Below are positions 7 to 21,360 of a stretch of 64,000 nt of DNA, piece after piece. Where the stretch lies: assembly GCA_038841535.1 (NCBI GenBank), contig JAWBTQ010000004.1, positions 64,316 through 128,315 of the forward strand, read 5' to 3'. Under the pieces are notes generated by a model. That model had not been told where the DNA came from and searched no databases. It saw only the letters and a program-made list of their open reading frames with translations. The number at the start of each line of letters is the position of its first letter. Positions within the stretch are counted from its first letter, which is position 1. The stretch is from Sulfolobales archaeon (GTDB lineage: Archaea > Thermoproteota > Thermoprotei_A > Sulfolobales > NBVN01). The position numbers were made by a program, and so were the translations under genes.

Positions 7-777
7 TCACCTACTAGAAGAAGACTTAGTGAGAGACGAGTAGCTAAACGCTTTAAGCATGGCCATAAAGTCTTCTCTACTCATCCCAAGTCTCTCCACC
101 ACCTTCGAGAACTCCTCTAGCTTCTCTCTATCTACTATAAGTGCGTTAAGACCGTAGCACCCATAGCAACCACGCCTAAAGCTTGGGCAGAGCGCTCCAC
201 AGCCGGATAGAGTTATTGGACCGAGGCACGGTTTTCCATCAAATACTGTTACACATAGTATCCCCTTTCTCTTGCACTCCGAGCATAAGCTCTCAACTAT
301 CGGGGACTCGCTTCCCCCCATCACTAGCTTAACTAGAAACCTAGCTAAAGCCTCTCCGTTAGCCGGACAGCCAGAGAATCTGTAATCTACGTTTACTACG
401 CTATCTACGCTCTTAACTTCTGGTAGCACCTTGATATGGTCGGGGTTTGGGTAGGAGGCTAAAACAACAGTTCTAAGATCCTCTCCTGCTCTCAGAGACT
501 GTACTCCACCGAAGACAGCGCAGGTACCTAGAGCTATTAGTACTCTAGATTTCTCTCTAACCTGCTTAACTAGCTCTTCCTGCTCGCTGTTCGCTATAGA
601 ACCCTCAACTATGGCTACATCTACATCTTCAATAGCGTTTGAGTCCTGTAGTTCAGTAAAGTAGGATATGTTGAGGTACCTCAGTAGCTCAGCGCGTGCT
701 ACTAGTGAGTAAAGCACCTCGTTTAAGCATCCAGAGCACGAGGTCAGCTTCAAAACTGAGACACTAAGTTTCCTCAT
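7..777 (-). CDS. hydD: Group 3b [NiFe] hydrogenase (sulfhydrogenase) small/delta subunit
   Basis: N-terminal TSCSGC, EGS, GTCAVFGG and GCP proximal-cluster motifs, plus the C-terminal CSEC..C..PCLGP..GC..CP...CYGC motifs. A GTG at 8-10 overlaps the stop and suggests the next subunit starts at the window edge. Confidence 0.9.
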   Translation of the reverse strand: MRKLSVSVLKLTSCSGCLNEVLYSLVARAELLRYLNISYFTELQDSNAIEDVDVAIVEGSIANSEQEELVKQVREKSRVLIALGTCAVFGGVQSLRAGEDLRTVVLASYPNPDHIKVLPEVKSVDSVVNVDYRFSGCPANGEALARFLVKLVMGGSESPIVESLCSECKRKGILCVTVFDGKPCLGPITLSGCGALCPSFRRGCYGCYGLNALIVDREKLEEFSKVVERLGMSREDFMAMLKAFSYSSLTKSSSSR

Positions 778-1601
778 AGTCCTCTCACCGTCACATACTG
801 TTTTACGTCTTGGTAACTAAACACCGGTCCATCTTTGCATATAAAGTAATGACCCAGTTGACACGTGCCGCAGATCCCTATACCGCATCTACACCTCCTC
901 TCCAGTGATAGGAACACCCTATCCTCTTTTACGCCCTTCTTTACGAGCTTGTCTGCAGCTACCTTCATCATTACCTCTGGACCACAAACGAACGCAACTG
1001 TGTTCTGCAGGTTAAATTTAACTCTGTCTATAAGGTCTGTTACAAAGCCTACATGACCCTTCCAACCGGAATGCGGTATGTCTATAGAGAACAGAATTGT
1101 GGAGTTCGGTATTTTACTGTACTCCTCGTATTCGTACTTAAATAGCATATCTACAGGTCTTCTAGCTCCATAAAGGAGTATGAAGTGCCCGTAGAGACTC
1201 CTATTCTCGGCTACGTGCTTTATTAGCGCTCTCAGTGGAGCTAACCCTATTCCACCGCCTATAACAAGGACGTCATGGCCCTCAAATTCGCGGATAGGCC
1301 AACCCCTACCGTAGGGCCCGCGAATCCCCAGGTAGCTACCCACACCAACGTTAGTGTAGATGTAATTAGTTACTGCTCCTACAGCTCTAACGGTGTGCTC
1401 CACTAAGCTCCTATCTCCTGCTGCATAGTTTGATATAGAAATGACTACTTCACCCATACCCTTTACATAGAGAACATCAAACTGACCTGGTAGTGGTGTC
1501 GGAAAGCCGTCGACCACTATATGGTATGTTCTAACTAGTGGGGCCTCATCTACTACTTTAGTTACCCTCCCTTTCATCGGAATGAGTTTATCTACCGGCA
1601 T
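774..1601 (-). CDS. hydG: Sulfhydrogenase gamma subunit (FAD/NAD(P)-binding, [2Fe-2S])
   Basis: PGQF, RGPYGRGW, GGGIGLAP, VCGPEVMM and CGIGICGTC...CKDGPVF motifs. Confidence 0.9.
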   Translation of the reverse strand: MPVDKLIPMKGRVTKVVDEAPLVRTYHIVVDGFPTPLPGQFDVLYVKGMGEVVISISNYAAGDRSLVEHTVRAVGAVTNYIYTNVGVGSYLGIRGPYGRGWPIREFEGHDVLVIGGGIGLAPLRALIKHVAENRSLYGHFILLYGARRPVDMLFKYEYEEYSKIPNSTILFSIDIPHSGWKGHVGFVTDLIDRVKFNLQNTVAFVCGPEVMMKVAADKLVKKGVKEDRVFLSLERRCRCGIGICGTCQLGHYFICKDGPVFSYQDVKQYVTVRGL

Positions 1602-2676
1602 ATCCTACAGCCCTCGAGACAACCTCCTTTAAGTCTATGCCCATAGGACACCAGGTAATACACCTTCCACACCCAACACAACCTGGAAGGCCAACTTGTT
1701 TTTGATAAAAGAGAAACTTGTGTAGCACGAAGTGTCTGTACCTCATAAAAAGCTCTGGTCTGAAGTGCTGACCAGCAACTTGACCATACGTAAACGAAAG
1801 ACAGCCGAACCAGTGTCTATCACGCCAGGCTTTGCCTGATAGATCAGCATAGTCGTTAAACTCCGTGCAGAAGCATGTTGGACATACCATGTTGCAGTTA
1901 GTGCAGCCAACGCACCTCGCTGAAGCCTCTCTCCAGAATCCCTCTGCGGCAGCTACATCTTCAAGAGCTCTGACTACGACATTAAATGGTGGAATTCGAG
2001 AAGCCTCTTTCCTAGCTTCATTTAAAGCTTCATCATACATTCTTAACGTCTCTTCTGAAGCAGGAGTGATACCTACTCTCTCAACTAGCTTAAGCCCTTT
2101 CTCGGAGCCTACCTTAAACAGCACTTGATCACCTAACCTAGCGTACGCTATATCGTACCCCTTCGATACGGCAGGTCCTGTCCCGATCGAGCCACAGAAA
2201 CACGTACCTCCAGGTTCAACACACTCTTCTACCACTATATACTCTATGCGTGCCCTTCTAGCCTGGTATACGTCATCGCGTTCTAGAACTTTATCAAGCA
2301 CTTCGATAGCGGCAAGATCGCAAGGTTTTATTCCAAAAAGTACTGATGGAGGGAAGTCGTCCTTAGTTCGCACTATCTCGAAGTCATCGGAGATCTCGTA
2401 AACAACCTGAGTTGGGTAGTGCAGGAGATGCTTAGGGGAGTACTGAGTGTGCCTAAAGACTCCCTTTACTTCTTTAGCAAGCCTGTAACTCCCGGGGCTC
2501 TGTATGTCTGTGTAGTCGATTAGTAGGTCGCTTAGTCTGCTCACTTCTCCAATCACAGGTAAGTCTCCTTCAAGTTTGTAAGATAACACTCTCAGTCCTA
2601 GCTCCTTTAGAGCAAGTATGAGGTTCTCTAATAAGAGTACACTGCCCTCGAAGTATTCTCCAAGCATTCTTGACAT
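1588..2676 (-). CDS. hydB: Sulfhydrogenase beta subunit (AsrA-like Fe-S protein)
   Basis: FGIKPCD, CFC, CVGCTNCNMVCPTCFC and CVGCGRCITWCP motifs; operon order beta-gamma-delta. Confidence 0.9.
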   Translation of the reverse strand: MSRMLGEYFEGSVLLLENLILALKELGLRVLSYKLEGDLPVIGEVSRLSDLLIDYTDIQSPGSYRLAKEVKGVFRHTQYSPKHLLHYPTQVVYEISDDFEIVRTKDDFPPSVLFGIKPCDLAAIEVLDKVLERDDVYQARRARIEYIVVEECVEPGGTCFCGSIGTGPAVSKGYDIAYARLGDQVLFKVGSEKGLKLVERVGITPASEETLRMYDEALNEARKEASRIPPFNVVVRALEDVAAAEGFWREASARCVGCTNCNMVCPTCFCTEFNDYADLSGKAWRDRHWFGCLSFTYGQVAGQHFRPELFMRYRHFVLHKFLFYQKQVGLPGCVGCGRCITWCPMGIDLKEVVSRAVGYAGR

Positions 2677-2789
2677 CTATACCCTGTTCTTAGTACTTCA
2701 ATAAATATGTAAGTTAATTAAACTTAATTAAATATAAGTATAACGGCTTCGAATTGAAGTATAAGCTATTTCATCGTGAATTTCGGCAC

Positions 2790-4088
2790 TTAGCAGACTT
2801 TAAACATCCTCCTAATGTCGCTTAACTTAGTTACTCTCTCTTGGAATATCGCGCTAAATCTCTTTTTGTTACTTAATGGCTGTCCTCCACCCATTAAGCA
2901 GCCACCAGGACATACTTCAAACACTGGTAGACTCTTTTCATTTCGAAAGCTCGTGAGGTTGGCAGGAGGGTATACCTTAGTAACCTCTCTCTGCCTAAGG
3001 ACTACGTAATCGGGGTATTCATCAGTTAGCGTATCGTAGTTAAGTTTCTTGAGAGCTATCTGCGCTTCCCGCGCAGTCAGCACTCTTGGGAGTACTCTTT
3101 TCCAAGATAGGCACTGAGTGATATAGACTACTCCAGGTGGTATGTTTAGCTTGGGCTCGATAGCTTTAACTCCAGGTGCTAAAGTTTGAAGTATCTTTTT
3201 CTCGGCTAGCGACCTAGCTACTATCACTTCCTCAGTTCTTAAATCGACTTCAGCAAGTGGGTCGTATACCGTGACCCTTTCGAATCCGATAGCCTTGAGT
3301 CCGCAAATGACCTTAAGCGGGTCTAGTCCCTCAGCTTCCGATAAAGAAGCTATGACCTCGGGCTCTACGTACGCCTCAGATACGTGTCCTCTTCTAATTT
3401 CAGCGAGTACTTTATCTACATCTAAGCTGTACGTAATGGATCCAGCAGGACAGTATGCAGCACAGAGTCCGCAGTAAACGCAGCCGGACTTTCTGAAGGG
3501 TTCTCCATAAGGTGTTGAGACTAAAGTCTCTATACCTCGGTTAACGTAGTTAAGTACCTTAGCCCCGATCTTCGAGCATATTTCAACGCACCGTCCGCAC
3601 ACAAAGCACTTAAGCTGGTCGAACTTCATTAACTCGTCCTCTATCACTTGACCTCCTCGCTCGATATAACTAAATCTTTTCTCACTAACTATCCACTTAA
3701 GCCCTGCCGCTATCTTCTTAATTAATTCAATAACTTCTGATGGCTGAGCCGGACAGCCTCTTACGTAGCAATCTACCTTAACATGGCTACTCACAGGTTT
3801 TGACAGACCTAGAGCTCCTTGTACGCCTCCTAGACATGCGCAACTACCTAGGGCTACCAAGACCTTTGCTTTGCTTCTAACTCTGTGGAGTAGCTCGAGG
3901 TCTCTCCCGCTCAGTACCGACCCCTCGACTAAGGCTACATCAACGTCATCGACTTCTTTACCTATTCCAGCTAGCGGCCAGTAAGTTAGTGAGATGTCGT
4001 CTCTCTCTAAAAGGTCGGCAAACTCTTTGCTCACCAAGTTGTACTGACAGCCATCGCAGCCAGATAGGGCCACGATCGCAACCTTCAT
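2790..4088 (-). CDS. Chimeric Fe-S subunit: [NiFe] small-subunit N-terminal domain + 2x[4Fe-4S] ferredoxin + degenerate [FeFe]-hydrogenase H-domain
   Basis: SGCDGC/EGSV/GSCACLGG/RGCP, then CFVCGRCVEIC and CVYCGLCAAYCP, then TQCLSWK and FEVCPGGCLMGGGQP (H-cluster P2- and P3-like). Confidence 0.8.
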   Translation of the reverse strand: MKVAIVALSGCDGCQYNLVSKEFADLLERDDISLTYWPLAGIGKEVDDVDVALVEGSVLSGRDLELLHRVRSKAKVLVALGSCACLGGVQGALGLSKPVSSHVKVDCYVRGCPAQPSEVIELIKKIAAGLKWIVSEKRFSYIERGGQVIEDELMKFDQLKCFVCGRCVEICSKIGAKVLNYVNRGIETLVSTPYGEPFRKSGCVYCGLCAAYCPAGSITYSLDVDKVLAEIRRGHVSEAYVEPEVIASLSEAEGLDPLKVICGLKAIGFERVTVYDPLAEVDLRTEEVIVARSLAEKKILQTLAPGVKAIEPKLNIPPGVVYITQCLSWKRVLPRVLTAREAQIALKKLNYDTLTDEYPDYVVLRQREVTKVYPPANLTSFRNEKSLPVFEVCPGGCLMGGGQPLSNKKRFSAIFQERVTKLSDIRRMFKVC

Positions 4089-4095
4089 TAATCTA

Positions 4096-5367
4096 TCACC
4101 TCACTTTAACGACGTGAACGGCACACGGGATACACGGGTCGTAAGCTCTAACGAGCGCCTCTATGTACTTCTGTATAGTTGAATCACTAGCGCCTTCAGC
4201 GAGAAGTTCTTTGGCTATAGAGGTTGCGGACAGCTCTACGTGCTCTGTATTCATGACTGTCGGAGTAGCTATATCAGCCCTAACGACTTTTAGGTCTTTA
4301 TCTACCTCGTAGTAGTGTATCAGTAACCCTCTCGGAGCTTCCACAACACCTAGACCAGCTGACGCACATCTCGTAGTAGCCGGCTGTAGCTCTAGGTCTC
4401 TAGATGAAAGCTCACTGACGTCTTGAACTATGGAGTCGAACATCAGCTTCGATTCTATTGCTTTAGCGTAGATGTTGGAGTAGGGGTTTTCTTTAAGCTT
4501 TTTCTCAAAGCTAGCCACAACACCTCTAGTCTCACCGTCGAGTTCGTTGTACTCTAGTGCACTTAAGAGTCTAGCTCTAGCTCCAACGTAAAACGGGTAG
4601 CCTAAGAATAAGCACTTTTTGCTACTAGAGTACTCAACGTGTAGTTCGTTAAAGAGCTCTCTATAGTTCTCTAAGGTAGTAGCGAACCTTCCAGTAGGTG
4701 TATTTAAGCTGTAGGGCTGGCCTCTTGGGACAGTGGACCTAGTAGACCCCGATAGAGCAACGTACCTAGGTGATGGGTCTCTAGAGTTCGGAAGCTCGAT
4801 GTCTAGCACTCTCTCTGTGAAGCCCTCGAGGTGGGGCCGCACGGATTTTAGTAGCTCAAGTGCTGACATGAATACTCTACGGCTGACGTCGGATAGGAAC
4901 CTCCCCATAGAGTAGTTATTGGGTGACGTAAGTCTGCCGCATACGAGCTTAATGACCTTGTTTAAGTAGGTGTTGATCTCTAGAGACTTCTTCGCGAGCT
5001 GCTCAGAAGCTTCCCTACTTAAGTAGTCCGGTAGCGCTAGAACCCCTAAGTGAATTACGTGGTTCTGAATAAAGCTCAGCTTATTGCATACGTCCCTCAA
5101 TCTGACAGTGTCTTCAGAGGCTTCTACCCCTGCGATTTGCTCAACAGCTAAAGACGCTGCCCAGAAATGGGGGTGGCTACACACTCCGCAGATCCTTGAA
5201 GCTATAGCTGGTACTTCACTAACTTTCCGCCCGATGACTAAGTTTTCGAATCCTCTCAGGCTTGCTACTGAGCTATACGTGACTCTCGCAGAGCCGTCGT
5301 ATATCAACACCTCTACCTTGGACTCACCGGCCACTCTAGGTATTTCCCAGCTTAGTGACTTACTCAT
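4096..5367 (-). CDS. Group 3 [NiFe] hydrogenase large subunit
   Basis: L1 RICGVCSHPH, EAPRGLLIH, L2 DPCIPCAVH followed by a short cleavable tail (VVKVR). Confidence 0.92.
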   Translation of the reverse strand: MSKSLSWEIPRVAGESKVEVLIYDGSARVTYSSVASLRGFENLVIGRKVSEVPAIASRICGVCSHPHFWAASLAVEQIAGVEASEDTVRLRDVCNKLSFIQNHVIHLGVLALPDYLSREASEQLAKKSLEINTYLNKVIKLVCGRLTSPNNYSMGRFLSDVSRRVFMSALELLKSVRPHLEGFTERVLDIELPNSRDPSPRYVALSGSTRSTVPRGQPYSLNTPTGRFATTLENYRELFNELHVEYSSSKKCLFLGYPFYVGARARLLSALEYNELDGETRGVVASFEKKLKENPYSNIYAKAIESKLMFDSIVQDVSELSSRDLELQPATTRCASAGLGVVEAPRGLLIHYYEVDKDLKVVRADIATPTVMNTEHVELSATSIAKELLAEGASDSTIQKYIEALVRAYDPCIPCAVHVVKVR

Positions 5368-6023
5368 GGTTTACCACCCTTCGTGACTACCTCCCTTAGT
5401 CTCTCGGGTAGATTGCTCCAGAAAAACTTCATAGTAGCCTCGATCTCCTTTACGTCTATTCTATACCTCCTGTATAGCTCCACTGTAGCGTCTTCCCAAA
5501 TCCTTGAGTCACTTAAGTACCCCCGACACCCCACACACGGAGCTCCGTAGCGAGGGCATTCAGCAGAACAGCCGGCGACAGTCAGAGGTCCTAAGCACGG
5601 CTCACCCTTTGTGATGAGGCATTCATCCCCTATGAGTGGGCACTCAGAGCACACCGGTAACCCTTCGATACCTAGCTGCTTCGATACTTCGAGTAGGGTA
5701 CAGTTCGACTTCCTTATGCAGCTCCAGCACTTGACTCTATGTGTCGATAGCAGTAGCTCTAGGTTGGTCCTTCTATACCTAGTGAGCTCATCACCTTCCG
5801 TCACTATTTTAGCTTCCTCAGATACCGGGAACCTACATGAGGGAACGACTCTCCCGTTAACTAGGACTACGCATATTCTACAAGTAGCTTCCTCGAAGAG
5901 TCCCTCGAGATAGCAGAGTACGGGGACTCTAAACCCAGCCTTCTCAACAGCATCTATTACGAAAGCGTTTCGTGGTACCTCTACCCGTACGCCATTTACG
6001 TAAACTCTAACCGCGTCCACCAT
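5364..6023 (-). CDS. Chimeric Fe-S subunit: HydA/NuoG/HoxU-type N-terminal [2Fe-2S] + His-ligated [4Fe-4S], fused to [NiFe] small-subunit C-terminal domain
   Basis: PVLC...CRICVV...PSC; HRVKCWSCIRKSNC; then CSECP...CL...PCLGPLTVAGCSAECP...CVGCRG, which aligns with the C-terminus of HydD in this window. Confidence 0.82.
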   Translation of the reverse strand: MVDAVRVYVNGVRVEVPRNAFVIDAVEKAGFRVPVLCYLEGLFEEATCRICVVLVNGRVVPSCRFPVSEEAKIVTEGDELTRYRRTNLELLLSTHRVKCWSCIRKSNCTLLEVSKQLGIEGLPVCSECPLIGDECLITKGEPCLGPLTVAGCSAECPRYGAPCVGCRGYLSDSRIWEDATVELYRRYRIDVKEIEATMKFFWSNLPERLREVVTKGGKP

Positions 6024-6026
6024 CTC

Positions 6027-7847
6027 TCACACCTTCCTAATTGCTCCAAAGGGACACGCGATCAAGCATTGACCGCACTTAGCGCAAAGCTCTTCCCTTA
6101 CTTTATGGACTTCTCCCGGCGAGCCAGATATCGCACCGGTAGGGCAGGTCTTAGCGCACTGCGTGCAACCCCTGCATAGGGCTGGGTCAATAACGTACTT
6201 AACTAACTTAGTGCAGACTTTAGCTGGACACCTACGATTGATTACGTGTTCTACGTACTCGTGTTTAAAGTACCACAGTGTCGACAGTATGGGGTTGGGT
6301 GCCGTTCCCCCGAGTGCGCAGAGGCTTGACTTAGCTATGCTCTCACCGAGCTCTTGAGCGAGCTCTATATCGTCTATCGTTCCAGTACCACTCGTAATCC
6401 TCTCCAGTATGTTGCTGAGCTGCTTCATGCCAACTCTACAAGGGAGGCACTTCCCGCAGGATTCAGCTAGAGTAAAGCCGGTGAAGAACTTTGCTACATC
6501 AACCATGCAGTTACCGTCGTCAATGACTACTAAACCTCCAGACCCCATTATGGCACCGTAGCTCTGCAGGCTCTCGTAGTCCATCTCTAGGTCCATTAGC
6601 TCAGCTGGAATGCATCCCCCACTAGGACCTCCTATCTGTACAGCCTTGACTTTCCTACCCTCCGGAGGTCCTCCCGCTATATCGAAGACTAAGGTCTTTA
6701 TCTTAGTCCCCACAGGCACTTCGTAAACCCCAGTCCTCTTGACGGCCCCAGTAACACAGAACATCTTAGTTCCTTTCGACTTGTCCGTTCCGTACTTAGT
6801 GAACTCGGCTACACCACTCTGGAATATCGTAGCAACGTGAGCAAGAGTCTCCACGTTGTTTATGACTGTTGGTTTTCCCCGCAGTCCACTAGTCGCAGGA
6901 TAGGGAGGCCTCTGCCTCGGTCTAGAGCGGCCCTCTATAGCTGCTATTAGTGCTGTTTCTTCTCCACACACGAACGCACCCGCACTCCTATAGACTTCTA
7001 CGTCGAAGTCGAACCCGGAGCCCAGGATGTTCTTCCCCAGGAACCCCGCTCTTCTTGCGTCGTTGACTGCTTTCTCTAGTCTTTCAGCCATAAGGGGTTT
7101 CTCGGCTCTAACGAAAATAAACCCTTTAGTCGCCCCAATAGCGTAGCCGGCGATTATGAGCCCCTCTAGAACTCTATGGGGGTCTGATTCAGCGAGGAGC
7201 CTGTTCATGAAGGCACCAGGGTCTCCTTCGTCACCGTTGCATATTACGTACTTAACGTCGCTCTTTTGTTCGTACGCTACCTTCCACTTAAACCAGGTCG
7301 GAAAGCCAGCTCCTCCTCTTCCTCTAAGACCGGAAGCCTTAACTTCCTCTATTACTTTCTCTCTACTCATACTCAAAGCTCTCTTAAGTCCCGAGTACCC
7401 ACCGGTCTCTACATAGTCTTCGATGGACTCAGGGTTTATTAAGCCGCAGTTTCTGGAAACGTACCTCGTCTGAAGTCTCCAGTAGTCTAGTTCGTCTAGC
7501 GACGGCGGGTCTCTAGAGTCTGTTTTGAATCTTACCGCAGTAGCTCCAGAGAGGTCTCCCTCTAAATACCTCTTCAAGATCTGTGGGACTTGGTCGGGCT
7601 TTACGTTTCCGTATAGTGCCGGAGGCTGTCCTTCTTTAGCTACCTCGATCCAGGGATCCATAAAGCAGAGACCGGTACACCCTACTGTATACACTTCGGC
7701 GTCTAGCTTTAGCTCTTCGACAGCTCTGCGAACTCTTCTATATACTTCTTCAGCACCTGCAGCAAGAGTACAGCTAGCTATCGGCACCCGTATTCTAAAG
7801 CCTTTACTACCGTACAGTATCTTCCTCAGAGTAGCCTGCGGCAGCAA
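6027..7847 (-). CDS. NuoF/HydB (BfuB)-like FMN/NAD(P)H-binding subunit with thioredoxin-like N-domain and C-terminal 2x[4Fe-4S]
   Basis: GLRGRGGAGFP, NGDEGDPGAFM, GAFVCGEETAL, GGPSGG, ESCGKCLPCR, EH..RRCPAKVC and two CxxCxxCxxxCP motifs. Confidence 0.93.
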   Translation of the reverse strand: MLPQATLRKILYGSKGFRIRVPIASCTLAAGAEEVYRRVRRAVEELKLDAEVYTVGCTGLCFMDPWIEVAKEGQPPALYGNVKPDQVPQILKRYLEGDLSGATAVRFKTDSRDPPSLDELDYWRLQTRYVSRNCGLINPESIEDYVETGGYSGLKRALSMSREKVIEEVKASGLRGRGGAGFPTWFKWKVAYEQKSDVKYVICNGDEGDPGAFMNRLLAESDPHRVLEGLIIAGYAIGATKGFIFVRAEKPLMAERLEKAVNDARRAGFLGKNILGSGFDFDVEVYRSAGAFVCGEETALIAAIEGRSRPRQRPPYPATSGLRGKPTVINNVETLAHVATIFQSGVAEFTKYGTDKSKGTKMFCVTGAVKRTGVYEVPVGTKIKTLVFDIAGGPPEGRKVKAVQIGGPSGGCIPAELMDLEMDYESLQSYGAIMGSGGLVVIDDGNCMVDVAKFFTGFTLAESCGKCLPCRVGMKQLSNILERITSGTGTIDDIELAQELGESIAKSSLCALGGTAPNPILSTLWYFKHEYVEHVINRRCPAKVCTKLVKYVIDPALCRGCTQCAKTCPTGAISGSPGEVHKVREELCAKCGQCLIACPFGAIRKV

Positions 7848-8355
7848 TACTGCCGAACCCCGCGGTACTAGCCGCTCTAGACTTGTAGCTTAAGATAAGC
7901 CTCCTACTCTCAGTCGGTGTGAGCTTACCGTGAACGTATCTCTCGGAGCCATCTGAAGAGACAACCATGGCAACCGGGGCTAGGCTACAGCAACCGAAGC
8001 ACCTCGCCTTTTCGATAGTGAGAGAGCCGTCCTCCGTCGTAGTTCCTCCGTCATTAAGTCCGACTGCTCTCCTCATCGCTTCGTAAACCTCTGAAGAACC
8101 CCTCAAGTAGCACGCTGTACCAAAGCATACGTATGCTACGTACTTACCCACCGGTTCGAGCCTGAACTGGTGGTAGAAAGTAGCTACGTTGAGGACTTCA
8201 GCGAGAGACACTCCTAAGCGCCTAGATACCTCTTCGAGGCTTTCTCTAGGTAAGTACCCAAACGTTCTTTGAACTTCTTGAAGAATATTGATCAGCTTAC
8301 TTCTATCCGTACCGATCCTCGAAACTACGCTCTCAACGAATCCTCTAGGATCCAC
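7807..8355 (-). CDS. NuoE/HydC (BfuC)-like [2Fe-2S] subunit
   Basis: ATFYHQF, CFGTAC and CFGCCSLAP motifs. Confidence 0.92.
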   Translation of the reverse strand: MDPRGFVESVVSRIGTDRSKLINILQEVQRTFGYLPRESLEEVSRRLGVSLAEVLNVATFYHQFRLEPVGKYVAYVCFGTACYLRGSSEVYEAMRRAVGLNDGGTTTEDGSLTIEKARCFGCCSLAPVAMVVSSDGSERYVHGKLTPTESRRLILSYKSRAASTAGFGSIAAAGYSEEDTVR

Positions 8356-8443
8356 TCGCCCCCTTCAACTAGATCTTCGACCGTTGTTTAAAGCGAGGGT
8401 TAATTTATGGTAATTAACGAGTAAGTATTGTAAGTAAGTATAA

Positions 8444-9340
8444 CTATACCTTGGGGAAGAAGTACTTGCACCTACACGCCTTATTTCTAACACACCTTCC
8501 TAAGACTACCTCCGATATCCTAGAGGTTAAGTACTTGATGTTTCTACAGATTTCGTTTCGACACTCTGTTTCTCCCAACAAGCTGAGGACCTTGATCACG
8601 CTGTTGACAGCTGTTTCAACGTCTTGAACTAGGGTAGCACTTATAGCCGCTCTCGACAGCTCTAGGACTCTCGACAGCTCTACGTCTTCGCTTAGCTTAG
8701 GTTGCTCGACTCCTACTAAGATGTCGAAGAGCTCCTTGATGTACTCAATTGATACGGCTAGGTCTAGAGCTTCGTAGGGGTCTATAGAGCCGTCGGCAAC
8801 ACCCTGCTTTATGGTTCTAAGGAAGTACAGGTACTTTCTGTAGAACTCTCTGTATGTAGCGGGAGTAGAGGGGTTTCTCTCTTCAACGCAGTCTATGAGC
8901 TTGCTAGAGGTAGCTTCGATGGTTTTTAAGAGCGAGAGGAGGTCTGTCTTTACGTCAGAAAAAACTAGTTCGTGGATATTCGAACCCGGGTTAGCCATGA
9001 GGACGAAGCTCGTTACATAGTCCTTAAGGCTCTCAGAGAGCTCTAGAGACTGCTCATAGCTCGACTTTATCTTAACTCTCGTTACTCCCTCTACGTAGGA
9101 GGCAACTAGCTTCCTAATTGCTAGGTCGCTAGACTCGTACTCTATTAAGACGTTGACTTCCTCGCTTTGCTCACTACTCGAAGATGGAACTACAGTTATC
9201 TTAGAGCCATCGAAGTAGAGGCTAACTCTATCTCCAGGTTTAATACCTAGAGCGTCAGCCCACCTCTTCGGCACTATTATAGATAGAGAACCCTTACCAA
9301 CCACGTTCACTTTCTTGACTAAGCGCTCAGACATCTGCAC
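8444..9340 (-). CDS. AbrB/SpoVT-domain, PhoU-like transcriptional regulator with Cys-rich tail
   Basis: N-terminal GKGSLSIIVPKRWA..LGIKPGD (AbrB) and RKLVASYVEG typical of archaeal AbrB-PhoU regulators; helical C-terminal part. Confidence 0.7.
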   Translation of the reverse strand: MQMSERLVKKVNVVGKGSLSIIVPKRWADALGIKPGDRVSLYFDGSKITVVPSSSSEQSEEVNVLIEYESSDLAIRKLVASYVEGVTRVKIKSSYEQSLELSESLKDYVTSFVLMANPGSNIHELVFSDVKTDLLSLLKTIEATSSKLIDCVEERNPSTPATYREFYRKYLYFLRTIKQGVADGSIDPYEALDLAVSIEYIKELFDILVGVEQPKLSEDVELSRVLELSRAAISATLVQDVETAVNSVIKVLSLLGETECRNEICRNIKYLTSRISEVVLGRCVRNKACRCKYFFPKV

Positions 9341-9360
9341 TCCGAGATTACGTGTCTTAA

Positions 9361-18889: not shown

Positions 18890-19270
18890 GTGGTCGATAA
18901 GAATGCTGTTATCGAAAGGCTGAAAGAAGCTCTTAAGAACGTATACGACCCAGAGATTCCCATAAACATATGGGATCTAGGGCTGATCTATGGTATCGAC
19001 GTAGATGATTCCGGTAACGTGAGGATCAAGATGACTCTGACAGCTCCAGGATGCCCTATAGTATCATTCCTGCTTCACCAAGTTCAGGAGTCTATATATG
19101 GAGCTCTAGCCGATATTAAAGACATTAACGAAGTTAATATCGACCTAGTCTTTGATCCCCCGTGGGACCCAACTAAGATGACCGAGGAAGGAAGAAGGAG
19201 GTTTAAGGAGTTATTTGGTTACGATATTCTAGAGTCTTACTCTAAGAGAGGGCTTTTAAAGCAAACTTGA
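18890..19270 (+). CDS. DUF59/SufT/MIP18 Fe-S cluster assembly protein
   Basis: YDPEIPINIWDLGLIY, TLTAPGCP and FDPPW motifs. Confidence 0.9.
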   Translation: MVDKNAVIERLKEALKNVYDPEIPINIWDLGLIYGIDVDDSGNVRIKMTLTAPGCPIVSFLLHQVQESIYGALADIKDINEVNIDLVFDPPWDPTKMTEEGRRRFKELFGYDILESYSKRGLLKQT

Positions 19271-19833: not shown

Positions 19834-21360
19834 TTACGGTGATAGTTTGTTAACTACATGATCTAGAGGGAATACTACTCTCTGCCAAGGTCTTTCGCTT
19901 TGAGATCTACGTCTAAGCGGAAACCCTGTGTCAACTCCGAGAGTGCTAGATAGTTCCGCTATGCTTCGCCTCGATAGTCCTTTGAGGGCTAGAGATGTAG
20001 CCAGCTTTCCAACGTTTCTATTCCCAAGAGCTATGAGGGACTGGATGAAAGCATAAAGCCAGCGGAGGTAAGCAATAGAGCCCCCTCCAAGCTCCTTCTT
20101 GAAGAGCCCAACTTTTTTGAGGTACTCATCTTCGGTAATTAGTGGATAATCTTGCAGAGGTGTGTGCGGCTTAGGCACTAATGGGTTTATGTTTATTGTC
20201 ATATTTCTACGCAGCTTACGCGAGTGAGACATTAGATACTTCACGTTCTTTATAGTCTCGAGAACATGCTCTTCTCGCTCCAGTGGAAGACCGACCATTA
20301 TGTAAAGCTTGACGTTGAACCCTTTCTTAAGGGCTGATATCGCAAGTTCACTAAAAGTGCTGAAATTGAAGCACTTGCCGATATAGCAGCTTAACTCGAG
20401 GTTCATTGATTCAGGCGCGAGAGTAAGAGTTCTCTGGCTCGATAGCGATATGAGGTCTAGGTCGTCAAGTCTCAAGGTGTCCCACCTGATCGACGGTATC
20501 GAGAAGTCAATTTTGTTGTCAGCCATGTAGATTAAGAAGTCTCTAAAGCTGGGGTGGTCAAACGGTGAAAGTGAGTAAATTACCACTCTCCTTCGTCGAG
20601 TGAACTTCAAACCCTCACTCACTAAGCTCTTTACGGTCTCAAGGCTTCTGCACCTAAATGGATGCATAGTGTAGGCTTCAAGGCAGAACTTACACAACCA
20701 TCTGCAACCTCTAGATATCTCGATGTAGAAACCTTCACCGTAGACTGGCTCTACGCTTCTCGATCTGATCTCGGCTACTGGGTGAGGAGTGTTGTTTAAG
20801 TCTTCTACATAGACCTTCCTAGTGCTAGCCTCACCAGTGTATAGACCGTCACCTATAGATTCCAAGAAGCCAGTCGGTTTATCAGGTAGTAGGCTAAGTG
20901 AGCGAGCGAGTTTTTCTAAGAGGATCTCACCATCACCCACAAAGCACGCGTCAGCAACTTCTAGAAAAGGTTCTGGATTAGCCATCGCAGCAAGTCCACC
21001 TACCAGTATCACTGGTTTTTTCTTTCTTTTCTCAGCATTGAGCTCGATTCCAGATTCATTGAGCAATTTTGATAAATATAGTAGGTCTAACTCGTAGTTA
21101 GCACTAACGAGAAGTAGGTCGAATTCGCGGAGCTTACGCGATGTGATAGCGCCTTCGTTCGGGTTATCCAGCGTAAACCTATCGACTAGGGCATCGCTTT
21201 TCTCGATTAAGAAATAGTAGGCTATGTGAGTAAATAGATTAGTAATCGAGGCTTGGTACGTGCTTGGGTATACAAGTGCTACCCTAGGATAGCCAGAGGC
21301 TCTTAGGTAAACGTTATACTCTCTAAACTTACCAGAGTGTAATGCTAATTTCCACACCAA
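19834..21360 (-). CDS. Radical SAM protein with B12-binding-like N-terminal region
   Basis: EISRGCRWLCKFC (CxxxCxxC), TLAPES and PKPHTP motifs. Confidence 0.85.
   Translation of the reverse strand: MVWKLALHSGKFREYNVYLRASGYPRVALVYPSTYQASITNLFTHIAYYFLIEKSDALVDRFTLDNPNEGAITSRKLREFDLLLVSANYELDLLYLSKLLNESGIELNAEKRKKKPVILVGGLAAMANPEPFLEVADACFVGDGEILLEKLARSLSLLPDKPTGFLESIGDGLYTGEASTRKVYVEDLNNTPHPVAEIRSRSVEPVYGEGFYIEISRGCRWLCKFCLEAYTMHPFRCRSLETVKSLVSEGLKFTRRRRVVIYSLSPFDHPSFRDFLIYMADNKIDFSIPSIRWDTLRLDDLDLISLSSQRTLTLAPESMNLELSCYIGKCFNFSTFSELAISALKKGFNVKLYIMVGLPLEREEHVLETIKNVKYLMSHSRKLRRNMTININPLVPKPHTPLQDYPLITEDEYLKKVGLFKKELGGGSIAYLRWLYAFIQSLIALGNRNVGKLATSLALKGLSRRSIAELSSTLGVDTGFPLRRRSQSERPWQRVVFPLDHVVNKLSP

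Follow-up and report, generated by a model that had tools for sequence, protein, structure and literature searches.

Hybrid hydrogenases have been reported from archaea as enzymes that bring [FeFe] and [NiFe] catalysis together in one complex, and have been taken as a deep link between these two hydrogenase classes. In the parts available to us of the article describing them (Greening et al. 2024, PMC11216029), group F [FeFe] hydrogenases consist of an N-terminal group-3 small-subunit domain fused to a C-terminal HydA domain and are encoded contiguously with HyhL, HydB, HydC and HydD, the last being termed a 'NuoG-like conduit' with four clusters. This group F [FeFe]/group 3f [NiFe] hybrid hydrogenase was recorded there in 21 genomes, Thermoproteia among them; the carriers given in Table S2 include Sulfolobales NBVN01 (Zestosphaera, DTCV01), Thermofilaceae and Bathyarchaeia B24, with proteins of 413-477 amino acids (aa), and the supplement places the large subunits nearest group 3b. 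Here we analyse a hydrogenase operon at positions 2790-8355 of a 64,000-nucleotide (nt) stretch of contig JAWBTQ010000004.1 from a Sulfolobales archaeon (GCA_038841535.1), the whole of which is referred to as the window. We find that the operon is, close to certainly, a member of this family, that two of its proteins are the products of a reciprocal fusion, and that the site expected to hold the H-cluster is degenerate in the branch to which it belongs.

The operon was called as five open reading frames on the minus strand in the order HydC-HydB-X-L-Y. HydC (7807..8355, 182 aa) is a NuoE-like thioredoxin-type [2Fe-2S] subunit, HydB (6027..7847, 606 aa as called) a Bfu-type NuoF-like diaphorase recognised by Pfam and by alignment to solved chains, X (5364..6023, 219 aa) the counterpart of the HydD of Greening et al., L (4096..5367, 423 aa; Pfam NiFeSe_Hases) a group-3 [NiFe] large subunit, and Y (2790..4088, 432 aa) the small-subunit::HydA fusion. 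The intergenic spacings along the operon are -41, +3, -4 and +7 nt, and the five genes are therefore tightly coupled. This gene list is the one given in a preliminary description of the locus made from its sequence, and Pfam bears it out.

X joins the N-terminus of a HydA/NuoG-type protein (residues 1-120; 5664..6023, minus strand) to the C-terminal domain of a group-3 [NiFe] small subunit, which carries the medial and distal clusters (residues 121-219; 5367..5663, minus). Pfam places Fer2_4 and NADH-G_4Fe-4S_3 within residues 4-120 and matches nothing beyond them. In a search against all solved chains, residues 5-122 aligned with 4-122 of HydA1 (8a6t_A), and with 6-128 of 7q4v_A at E = 1.9e-19; positions 1-119 of the NCBIfam model FeFe_hydrog_A6 were also matched (1.4e-29). 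Residues 122-215 aligned with 161-254 of the Pyrococcus sulfhydrogenase delta subunit (9nez_A, E = 4.7e-20), and the same half matched positions 164-257 of the NCBIfam model sulfhyd_HydD (E = 4e-22). Across 31 sequences, the ligands of the N-terminal half, C37, C48, C51 and C63 for the [2Fe-2S] cluster and H95, C99, C102 and C108 for the His-ligated [4Fe-4S] cluster, are invariant or nearly so, and the C-terminal half holds eight invariant cysteines (C125, C128, C135, C143, C152, C156, C163 and C166). The 49 structural matches that Foldseek listed for the model of X comprised the NuoG/HydA N-terminal half alone, so the assignment of the small-subunit half rests on sequence.

Y holds the complementary pieces: the N-terminal, proximal-cluster domain of a [NiFe] small subunit (residues 1-130; 3699..4088, minus), a HydA-type F-domain with two [4Fe-4S] clusters (residues 137-225; 3414..3680, minus) and a reduced H-domain of about 207 aa (residues 226-432; 2793..3413, minus). 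Pfam recognises Oxidored_q6 (11-125, 3.5e-22) and two Fer4 domains (157-219), and in NCBIfam Y matches positions 1-93 of the model sulfhyd_ShyD and positions 136-268 of FeFe_hydrog_A6. Residues 2-125 match small-subunit N-domains (MvhG, 5odc_E, at 4e-17), and the predicted fold of this domain superposes on MvhG with a root-mean-square deviation of 1.8 A. When Y was searched as a single sequence against the solved chains, residues 138-282 and 392-414 aligned with 123-272 and 495-517 of HydA1; a profile built from 34 sequences of the Y family extended both matches, positions 1-139 aligning with delta 4-156 (E = 1.2e-35) and positions 140-423 with HydA1 118-516 (8a6t_A, E = 1.9e-44). Over the same 34 sequences the proximal-cluster ligands C11, C14, C83 and C112 are invariant, and the F-domain ligands (C161, C164, C167 and C171; C203, C206, C209 and C213) are conserved. 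The canonical small subunit encoded elsewhere in the window (7..777) is 48% identical to X 124-168 and 34% identical to Y 1-129. The breaks thus fall at complementary domain boundaries on the solved HydA and sulfhydrogenase delta proteins; therefore one small subunit and one HydA have each been cut and their pieces exchanged, X and Y together amount to one of each, and the two proteins are reciprocal fusion products. The composition of X, of Y and of the pair had been read in this way in the preliminary description, and each of the three readings is upheld by the alignments to solved chains, to NCBIfam models and to the delta subunit of the window itself. Among the Pfam domains it had named for the halves, Fer2_4, NADH-G_4Fe-4S_3, Oxidored_q6 and Fer4 were found, but Fe_hyd_lg_C had no match in Y at E <= 0.01.

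We also considered that Y 1-225 might be an entire FrhG-type small subunit to which a ferredoxin piece is appended, given that FrhG matches residues 2-224 at 3e-13. This candidate was rejected because the ferredoxin piece searched alone has HydA as its best match (7p5h_A, 2.3e-15; 8a6t_A, 1.9e-14), with FrhG absent among the best 60 chains listed, and because the match to HydA begins before the first Cys motif and continues unbroken into the H-domain.

The two chains were also predicted to bind each other, with an interaction score (interaction prediction score from aligned errors, ipSAE) of 0.80 against 0.00 for the best of three controls; in calibration, the mark for this score was reached by 116 of 157 solved complexes and by 2 of 215 mismatched pairs. 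The prediction runs shared at least 96% of contacts, and the predicted local distance difference test (pLDDT) score of the partner was at least 87. The modelled interface involves both halves of X (residues 35-110 and 118-204) and, in Y, 82-144 of the small-subunit part together with 157-225 and 340-412 of the HydA part, each half of X contacting the parts of Y that correspond to it. This pass may have its source in the likeness of the pair to solved single-chain HydA and small subunits.

To place the architecture among other genomes, one genome per prokaryote species was scanned, which yielded 78 loci. Seventeen of these (L062-L078), comprising 16 bacterial HydA-like records and one partial Sulfolobales match, align with residues ~99-360 of Y only and were dropped before synteny and motifs were counted; the 61 archaeal loci with a Y-type gene were kept. 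The order C-B-X-L-Y recurs in 45 of the 61, a synteny that the preliminary description had proposed looking for, while in 6 X is followed directly by Y without L and 10 are cut by contig ends. Both halves are present in all 53 X-like reading frames and the fusion in all 60 Y-like reading frames. Within the host's order, a Y-like gene (E <= 1e-40) occurs in 22 of 151 genomes, the host's own included, and within its family in 12 of the 18 other genomes searched; the nearest records are metagenome-assembled genomes of Thermoproteota and Sulfolobales, which agrees with the crenarchaeal host named at the outset. That the fusions might be assembly chimeras or decaying pseudogenes deserves mention in view of the host genome being a draft of 40 contigs. 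Against this stand the recurrence of the same fusions and gene order in other genomes, the open frames with all iron-sulfur (Fe-S) ligands invariant, and the bridging of both fusion junctions (~5660 and ~3683) by contigs of each of four independent public sequencing runs from four studies; the artefact explanation is already refuted, and we give it practically no weight.

Several of the related loci, and the sequencing runs that resemble the operon, show features of their own. The loci with X and Y adjacent (L040, L044, L049, L055, L056 and L060) all read HydC-HydB-X-Y and carry the record titles of Bathyarchaeia or Bathyarchaeota in four cases, Nitrososphaeria in one and 'uncultured archaeon' in one. 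An 825-aa HdrA/MvhD-like fusion (Pyr_redox_2, Fer4, FlpD) comes after Y in L040, and after it a canonical pair of small and large [NiFe] subunits. L005, whose record is titled Archaeoglobales, contains a complete Ser-type C-B-X-L-Y operon at 2694-8311 with a Y 42% identical to the one studied here, and its position outside Thermoproteota by title points to lateral transfer or to a mistake in binning. Of the words sampled from the operon stretch, half or more are present in each of at least 11 metagenome runs from hot springs. One run from a metatranscriptome library produced contigs over 4514-9343 and 2842-3957 at ~95-98% identity; they come from a near relative, are no proof of transcription and were not counted as evidence of expression.

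The features by which group F/3f was defined are all found here. Y carries the small-subunit::HydA fusion in one polypeptide; HyhL, HydB, HydC and a four-cluster HydD are contiguous with it, the ligands of X accounting for one [2Fe-2S], one His-[4Fe-4S] and two [4Fe-4S] clusters; and Y falls within the hybrid clade in the tree described below. The short proteins of Table S2, as far as that table was available, have the same local motifs as Y. The preliminary description had not recognised the architecture from known systems; that claim of novelty does not stand, the operon belonging to an already described subgroup. What the published account makes of the exchange itself is less explicit. In its main text the small-subunit portion of the fusion is given three [4Fe-4S] clusters, and the words 'split' and 'fission' do not appear; the small-subunit chain 5ODC_E was nevertheless used in the methods, together with 7T2R_A, to place cofactors in HydD, and the mixed nature of HydD was therefore at least used in practice. 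In the available parts of the article we found no statement of a reciprocal exchange or of the loss of the P1 cysteine in the short clade described below, and among the papers listed by a search of one literature collection we found none later than 2024 on the Ser-type or the reciprocal split. The explicit reciprocal description is a refinement and not the discovery of a new system; together with the degenerate H-site in the commonest branch, it makes a modest addition to a known family.

That degeneracy is seen throughout the H-domain of Y, which at ~207 aa compares with 314-326 aa in long relatives. The four Cys ligands of the [4Fe-4S]H subcluster, which we take to be C300, C355, C499 and C503 in CpI numbering, are three in Y: C326, C393 and C397 are present, and the P1 position is Ser293 with an Arg as its neighbour. 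In the alignment of the family profile to HydA, the P1 motif of solved HydA1, 'TSCCPSW', corresponds to 'VARSPAE' in the family and to 'VARSLAE' in this Y, such that the proton-relay Cys is replaced by Arg and the cluster-ligand Cys by Ser. At P2, 'MPCIGKK' corresponds to 'TQCLSWK', in which the cysteine is kept and the first Lys after it is Trp; other changes in the pocket of the Y family turn APA/APS into EPE and MPC into TQC. The P3 motif, with C393 and C397, is kept, and CPGGCxxGGGQP is nearly invariant. About 75 residues of HydA1, among them the '...TGGVMEA...' loop, have no counterpart in the Y family; in this region the long relatives have additional blocks, absent from the short forms, and a few of them show an SGGV-like motif. 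With one cluster ligand replaced and the H-domain incomplete, Y lacks two of the features that define an [FeFe] hydrogenase, and the 'H-domain relic' of the preliminary description was aptly named. The serine at the P1 ligand position is shared by this Y and all 60 Y-like reading frames of the related loci, one of which (L039) has a Cys beside it.

A separate homologue search identified 23 full-length hybrid-type clusters among 1.84 billion cluster representatives, and these, with the long form P0035 from an earlier homologue search, comprise 10 of H-site type 'xS' (H-domain 194-220 aa), 1 'CS', 1 'CC' and 12 'WC' (224-326 aa). We placed Y by means of a quick tree of the F- and H-domains with 40 rows, rooted on 15 non-hybrid HydA-like proteins picked from the search matches. 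The hybrids form one clade (Shimodaira-Hasegawa-like approximate likelihood ratio test, SH-aLRT, 95), within which the 'WC' forms make up one subclade (99); the 'xS' forms, this Y included, are nested (86) inside the other (99), at the base of which lie the 'CC' and 'CS' forms. The loss of the P1 cysteine is therefore derived and happened once. Among 16 of the 21 group-F rows of Table S2, 9 are Ser-type, 6 'WC' and 1 'CC', and with all 60 loci here being Ser-type, the short form makes up most of Thermoproteota group F. One row of that table, DTAF01000013.1_1, has ..ARSPVE.. (P1) and ..TQCLSW.. (P2) stretches in its printed sequence, and its motifs seem to have been unrecognisable rather than lost by truncation.

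Whether such a site can still activate H2 bears on what kind of enzyme the operon encodes. On the published group F model, L would contribute a [NiFe] site and Y an H-cluster, or some related catalytic cluster for which archaea would have an unknown assembly pathway, and both would supply a single bifurcating HydBC core. Experiments on the Chlamydomonas reinhardtii enzyme speak against this for the short forms: changing the equivalent residue of HydA1, C115 (next to C114), to Ser, Ala or Asp left little [4Fe-4S] cluster, no insertion of [2Fe] and no H2 that could be measured, evolution by the C115S variant being below detection, according to the part of that article available (PMC5855289). The same article (Kertess et al.) notes that Ser occurs at this position in ~20% of putative hydrogenases and could be an alternative ligand. 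The sampled Ser-at-ligand cases outside the short clade keep the neighbouring Cys ('CS'), whereas this Y has no Cys at either P1 position. Four non-hybrid proteins of 571-593 aa (P0106, P0114, P0116 and P0127), for example, read 'TSCSPGW' or 'TSCSIGW' at P1, a Cys followed by a Ser. An artificially matured group F protein, Th1, made H2 at ~5% of the level of CrHydA1 in the account of Greening et al.; Th1 and the other assayed protein, Th2, are 'WC' forms of 590-591 aa with Cys at P1, so this activity has no direct bearing on the short forms. Relaxed constraint adds to the case, the ratio of nonsynonymous to synonymous substitution rates (dN/dS) between this Y and the 94%-identical L001 being higher in the H-domain (0.42) than in the small-subunit domain (0.10) or the F-domain (0.06), and mean pairwise identity in the family being 0.35, 0.46 and 0.54, respectively. 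The loss of ~75 pocket residues and the replacement of lining residues by Glu, Arg and Trp point the same way. We consider two working sites in the short forms unlikely.

Several observations nonetheless weigh against our preferred reading, that of a [NiFe]-only enzyme with a vestigial H-domain, the natural occurrence of Ser at the ligand position and the activity of Th1 among them. The dN/dS figures come from 34 differences in one pair of sequences, and at less than 1 they also indicate purifying selection on the short H-domain. Ser293 is itself nearly invariant, the three remaining cysteines and the P3 motif persist across the short clade, and the AlphaFold2 model of the H-domain, with pLDDT mostly >85, matches the HydA fold with a template modelling (TM) score of 0.54, normalised to the query. 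The short H-domain is not in decay; it therefore does something, and it could be kept as an Fe-S or structural module.

The maturation genes are of limited help in deciding between these readings. Profile searches of the host genome, which is 83.8% complete, returned no match for HydE or HydG, and HydF-like GTPases all scored below the cut-off. HydEFG is likewise missing from most archaea that have active [FeFe] hydrogenases, so the absence is weak evidence, and this parallel counts in favour of two sites. An FeS_assembly_P protein (18890..19270) and a 508-aa radical-SAM protein (19834..21360, minus) lie ~11-13 kb from the operon; as the genome-wide searches for HydE and HydG came back empty, the latter is no recognisable H-cluster maturase.

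The [NiFe] side, by comparison of the same kind, looks intact, with all four Cys of L in place alongside the invariant cluster ligands of the small subunit. The CxxC pairs of L lie in RICGVCSHPH near the N-terminus and in DPCIPCAVH five residues before the C-terminus, and HypD and a maturation protease score above their cut-offs in the host genome. Among solved proteins, L is closest to the group 3b alpha subunit (5yxy_A, 6.2e-37, 9-421), followed by MvhA, HoxH and the HydL of Acetomicrobium mobile (6e-28), and it falls below all NCBIfam equivalog cut-offs (168 against 700 bits for ShyA; 147 against 880 for HydA). Compared with 36 canonical small subunits, the C-domains of X form one branch (SH-aLRT 99), and a single clade of the Y N-domains was not rejected (approximately unbiased test, p-AU 0.61); the canonical set consists of sequences picked up by the searches, and these trees singled out no sister group. 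Since L and both small-subunit halves are nearest to group 3b and then 3c, and not to the HoxYH-like module of A. mobile, the [NiFe] module was recruited independently. A canonical group-3b sulfhydrogenase lies directly downstream of Y on the minus strand (beta 2676..1588, gamma 1601..774, delta 777..7), with an alpha gene of its own just outside the window (G000:C4:63070-64209); it is separate from the hybrid operon, and the host genome has five [NiFe] large-subunit-like loci in all.

The diaphorase core indicates how H2 turnover might be coupled. HydC matches Pfam 2Fe-2S_thioredx (6.7e-42) over 2-144 of 145 positions; in NCBIfam, HoxE and NuoE come closest to it, though neither match reaches its cut-off. 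HydB contains Complex1_51K, SLBB, NADH_4Fe-4S and two Fer4 domains according to Pfam, corresponding to a thioredoxin-like N-terminal domain, a flavin mononucleotide (FMN)/nicotinamide adenine dinucleotide (NAD(H)) domain, the SLBB domain, a [4Fe-4S] domain and a C-terminal 2[4Fe-4S] ferredoxin domain. The Bfu family is characterised by a BfuB with FMN/NAD(H) and [4Fe-4S] sites plus additional N-terminal [2Fe-2S]-type and C-terminal 2[4Fe-4S] domains (Schut et al. 2022, PMC9304861), and this domain set, together with the [2Fe-2S] subunit BfuC, is found at the domain level in HydB and HydC. Solved BfuB subunits can be aligned to the whole of HydB (9bov_B, 1.2e-199; NfnB 9n5u_B, 4.8e-199; 7t2r_B, 2e-190, 25-606 against 15-597), whereas NuoF proteins cover residues 137-535 only; the earlier designation of HydB as a Bfu-type diaphorase thus holds. 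HydB as called starts at TTG and overlaps HydC by 41 nt (7796-7847), and since the BfuB alignments do not extend upstream of residue 18, the real initiation codon may be located further downstream.

It is improbable, in our estimation, that the enzyme is instead a non-bifurcating, Hox-like NAD(P)-linked [NiFe] hydrogenase in which HydBC is a simple diaphorase and ferredoxin is no co-substrate. HoxE does match HydC (1.8e-37) and HoxU matches X (2.8e-23), both below the cut-offs. The N-terminal and C-terminal domains that HydB shares with bifurcating BfuB argue otherwise, as does the difference between its matches to BfuB (1e-199 to 2e-190) and to the non-bifurcating HoxF (5xf9), which at 1.1e-72 cover residues 163-530 only.

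Taken together, these comparisons make a [NiFe]-only, bifurcating enzyme of the Bfu type with a vestigial H-domain the probable product of the operon. The operon encodes a soluble hydrogenase of five subunits in which X and Y rebuild a three-cluster [NiFe] small subunit beside L and a HydA-like Fe-S 'Y-junction' beside the HydBC core. The [NiFe] site of L would be where H2 is cleaved or formed, and electrons would pass from the proximal cluster in the N-domain of Y to the medial and distal clusters in the C-domain of X, then through the His-[4Fe-4S] and [2Fe-2S] clusters of X and the F-domain clusters of Y to HydB and its [4Fe-4S]/FMN site. Flavin-based bifurcation or confurcation at this site would couple NAD(H) and ferredoxin, with ferredoxin docking at the C-terminal 2[4Fe-4S] domain and the [2Fe-2S] cluster of HydC placed in the low-potential branch. 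We infer this route and the bifurcation from homology with the solved NiFe-HydABCSL enzyme of A. mobile and with the Bfu family, and that bifurcation, cluster order and physiological direction are all drawn from such homology is a further point on the side of caution. The H-domain of the Ser-type Y, judging from its motifs, would no longer be an H2-activating site and would hold at most a plain Fe-S cluster on three Cys, perhaps with Ser293, as a dead-end branch resembling the A5 cluster of A. mobile HydA; with its H-site degenerate, the enzyme would work as an archaeal NiFe-Bfu hydrogenase.

The gene order allows an origin to be proposed. The exchange could have started from a group-G-like operon with the order A-S-L, in which a circular segment carrying the small-subunit and large-subunit genes would have opened inside the small-subunit gene and been inserted into hydA by a single crossover at the boundary between its N-terminal and F-domains; a single such crossover gives A_N::S_C - L - S_N::A_C, the order seen here. 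We advance tentatively, as a compound proposal falling just short of probable, that the Ser-type branch is a NiFe-only Bfu hydrogenase with a fossil H-domain and not an [FeFe] enzyme, that it is, after A. mobile, an independent second case of a [NiFe] module taking over a HydABC scaffold, and that it arose in one reciprocal step. If the H-cluster site has indeed gone from the commonest, hot-spring branch, a caveat would have to be put on the number of archaeal '[FeFe]' hydrogenases counted in Thermoproteota, and the two-site idea would apply to the long forms only. A central role in the redox balance of these fermentative hyperthermophiles would fall to an enzyme that couples H2 to NAD+ and ferredoxin by bifurcation or confurcation. 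The split also shows that a [NiFe] small subunit and a HydA can each be divided where two domains meet and then reassembled from two chains, which is useful for the engineering of Fe-S relays.

Upstream of HydC, a 298-aa protein (8444-9340, minus) is recognisable by its N-terminal MazE/AbrB-type domain (residues 15-56) and could be a regulator of the operon, to judge by that domain. A scan for promoters and terminators gave 2 and 3 sites, respectively, fewer than the means of 5.1 and 4.6 in shuffled sequence; its patterns are bacterial and its outcome uninformative.

The operon can be compared with several known hydrogenase systems. The group 3b sulfhydrogenase (Pyrococcus SHI; 9NEZ, 5YXY) is the nearest solved relative of L and of the C-terminal half of X, and a family profile makes it that of the Y N-domain too; group 3b is defined by an alpha subunit above cut-off with beta and gamma partners, whereas L scores far below it and the hybrid operon has neither beta nor gamma. 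The bifurcating FeFe-HydABC enzymes of Thermotoga maritima, Thermoanaerobacter kivui and Acetobacterium woodii provide the best solved matches for the HydA-derived parts, HydB and HydC, but in these enzymes a single chain makes up HydA, its H-domain is complete and a [NiFe] module is absent. The NiFe-HydABCSL enzyme of A. mobile (Feng et al. 2022; 7T2R/7T30) has the Bfu-type HydBC core, the HydA-type Fe-S relay and a [NiFe] module in common with this operon, and its HydA likewise lacks the H-cluster motif and has an ordinary cluster instead. Its HydA and HydS are separate, intact and unswapped, and HydS is a one-cluster, HoxY-like (group 3d) protein; the small subunit here, in contrast, is divided between X and Y, carries three clusters and is closest to groups 3b/3c. 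Group G [FeFe] hydrogenases of Brockarchaeia, likewise proposed by Greening et al. to be hybrids with a [NiFe] module and reported there as sister to group F, are unswapped: their HydA of 530 aa carries Fer2_4 and NADH-G domains at an N-terminus of its own, and between it and the large subunit, encoded two genes further downstream, there is space for an unfused small subunit, an arrangement that resembles a state preceding the exchange. Closest of all is group F/3f, with the same five genes in the same phyla; the modelled and assayed proteins of that group, in the parts of the article at hand, are Cys-type forms of 590-591 aa from Thermoplasmatota, whereas the operon described here represents the short Ser-type branch.

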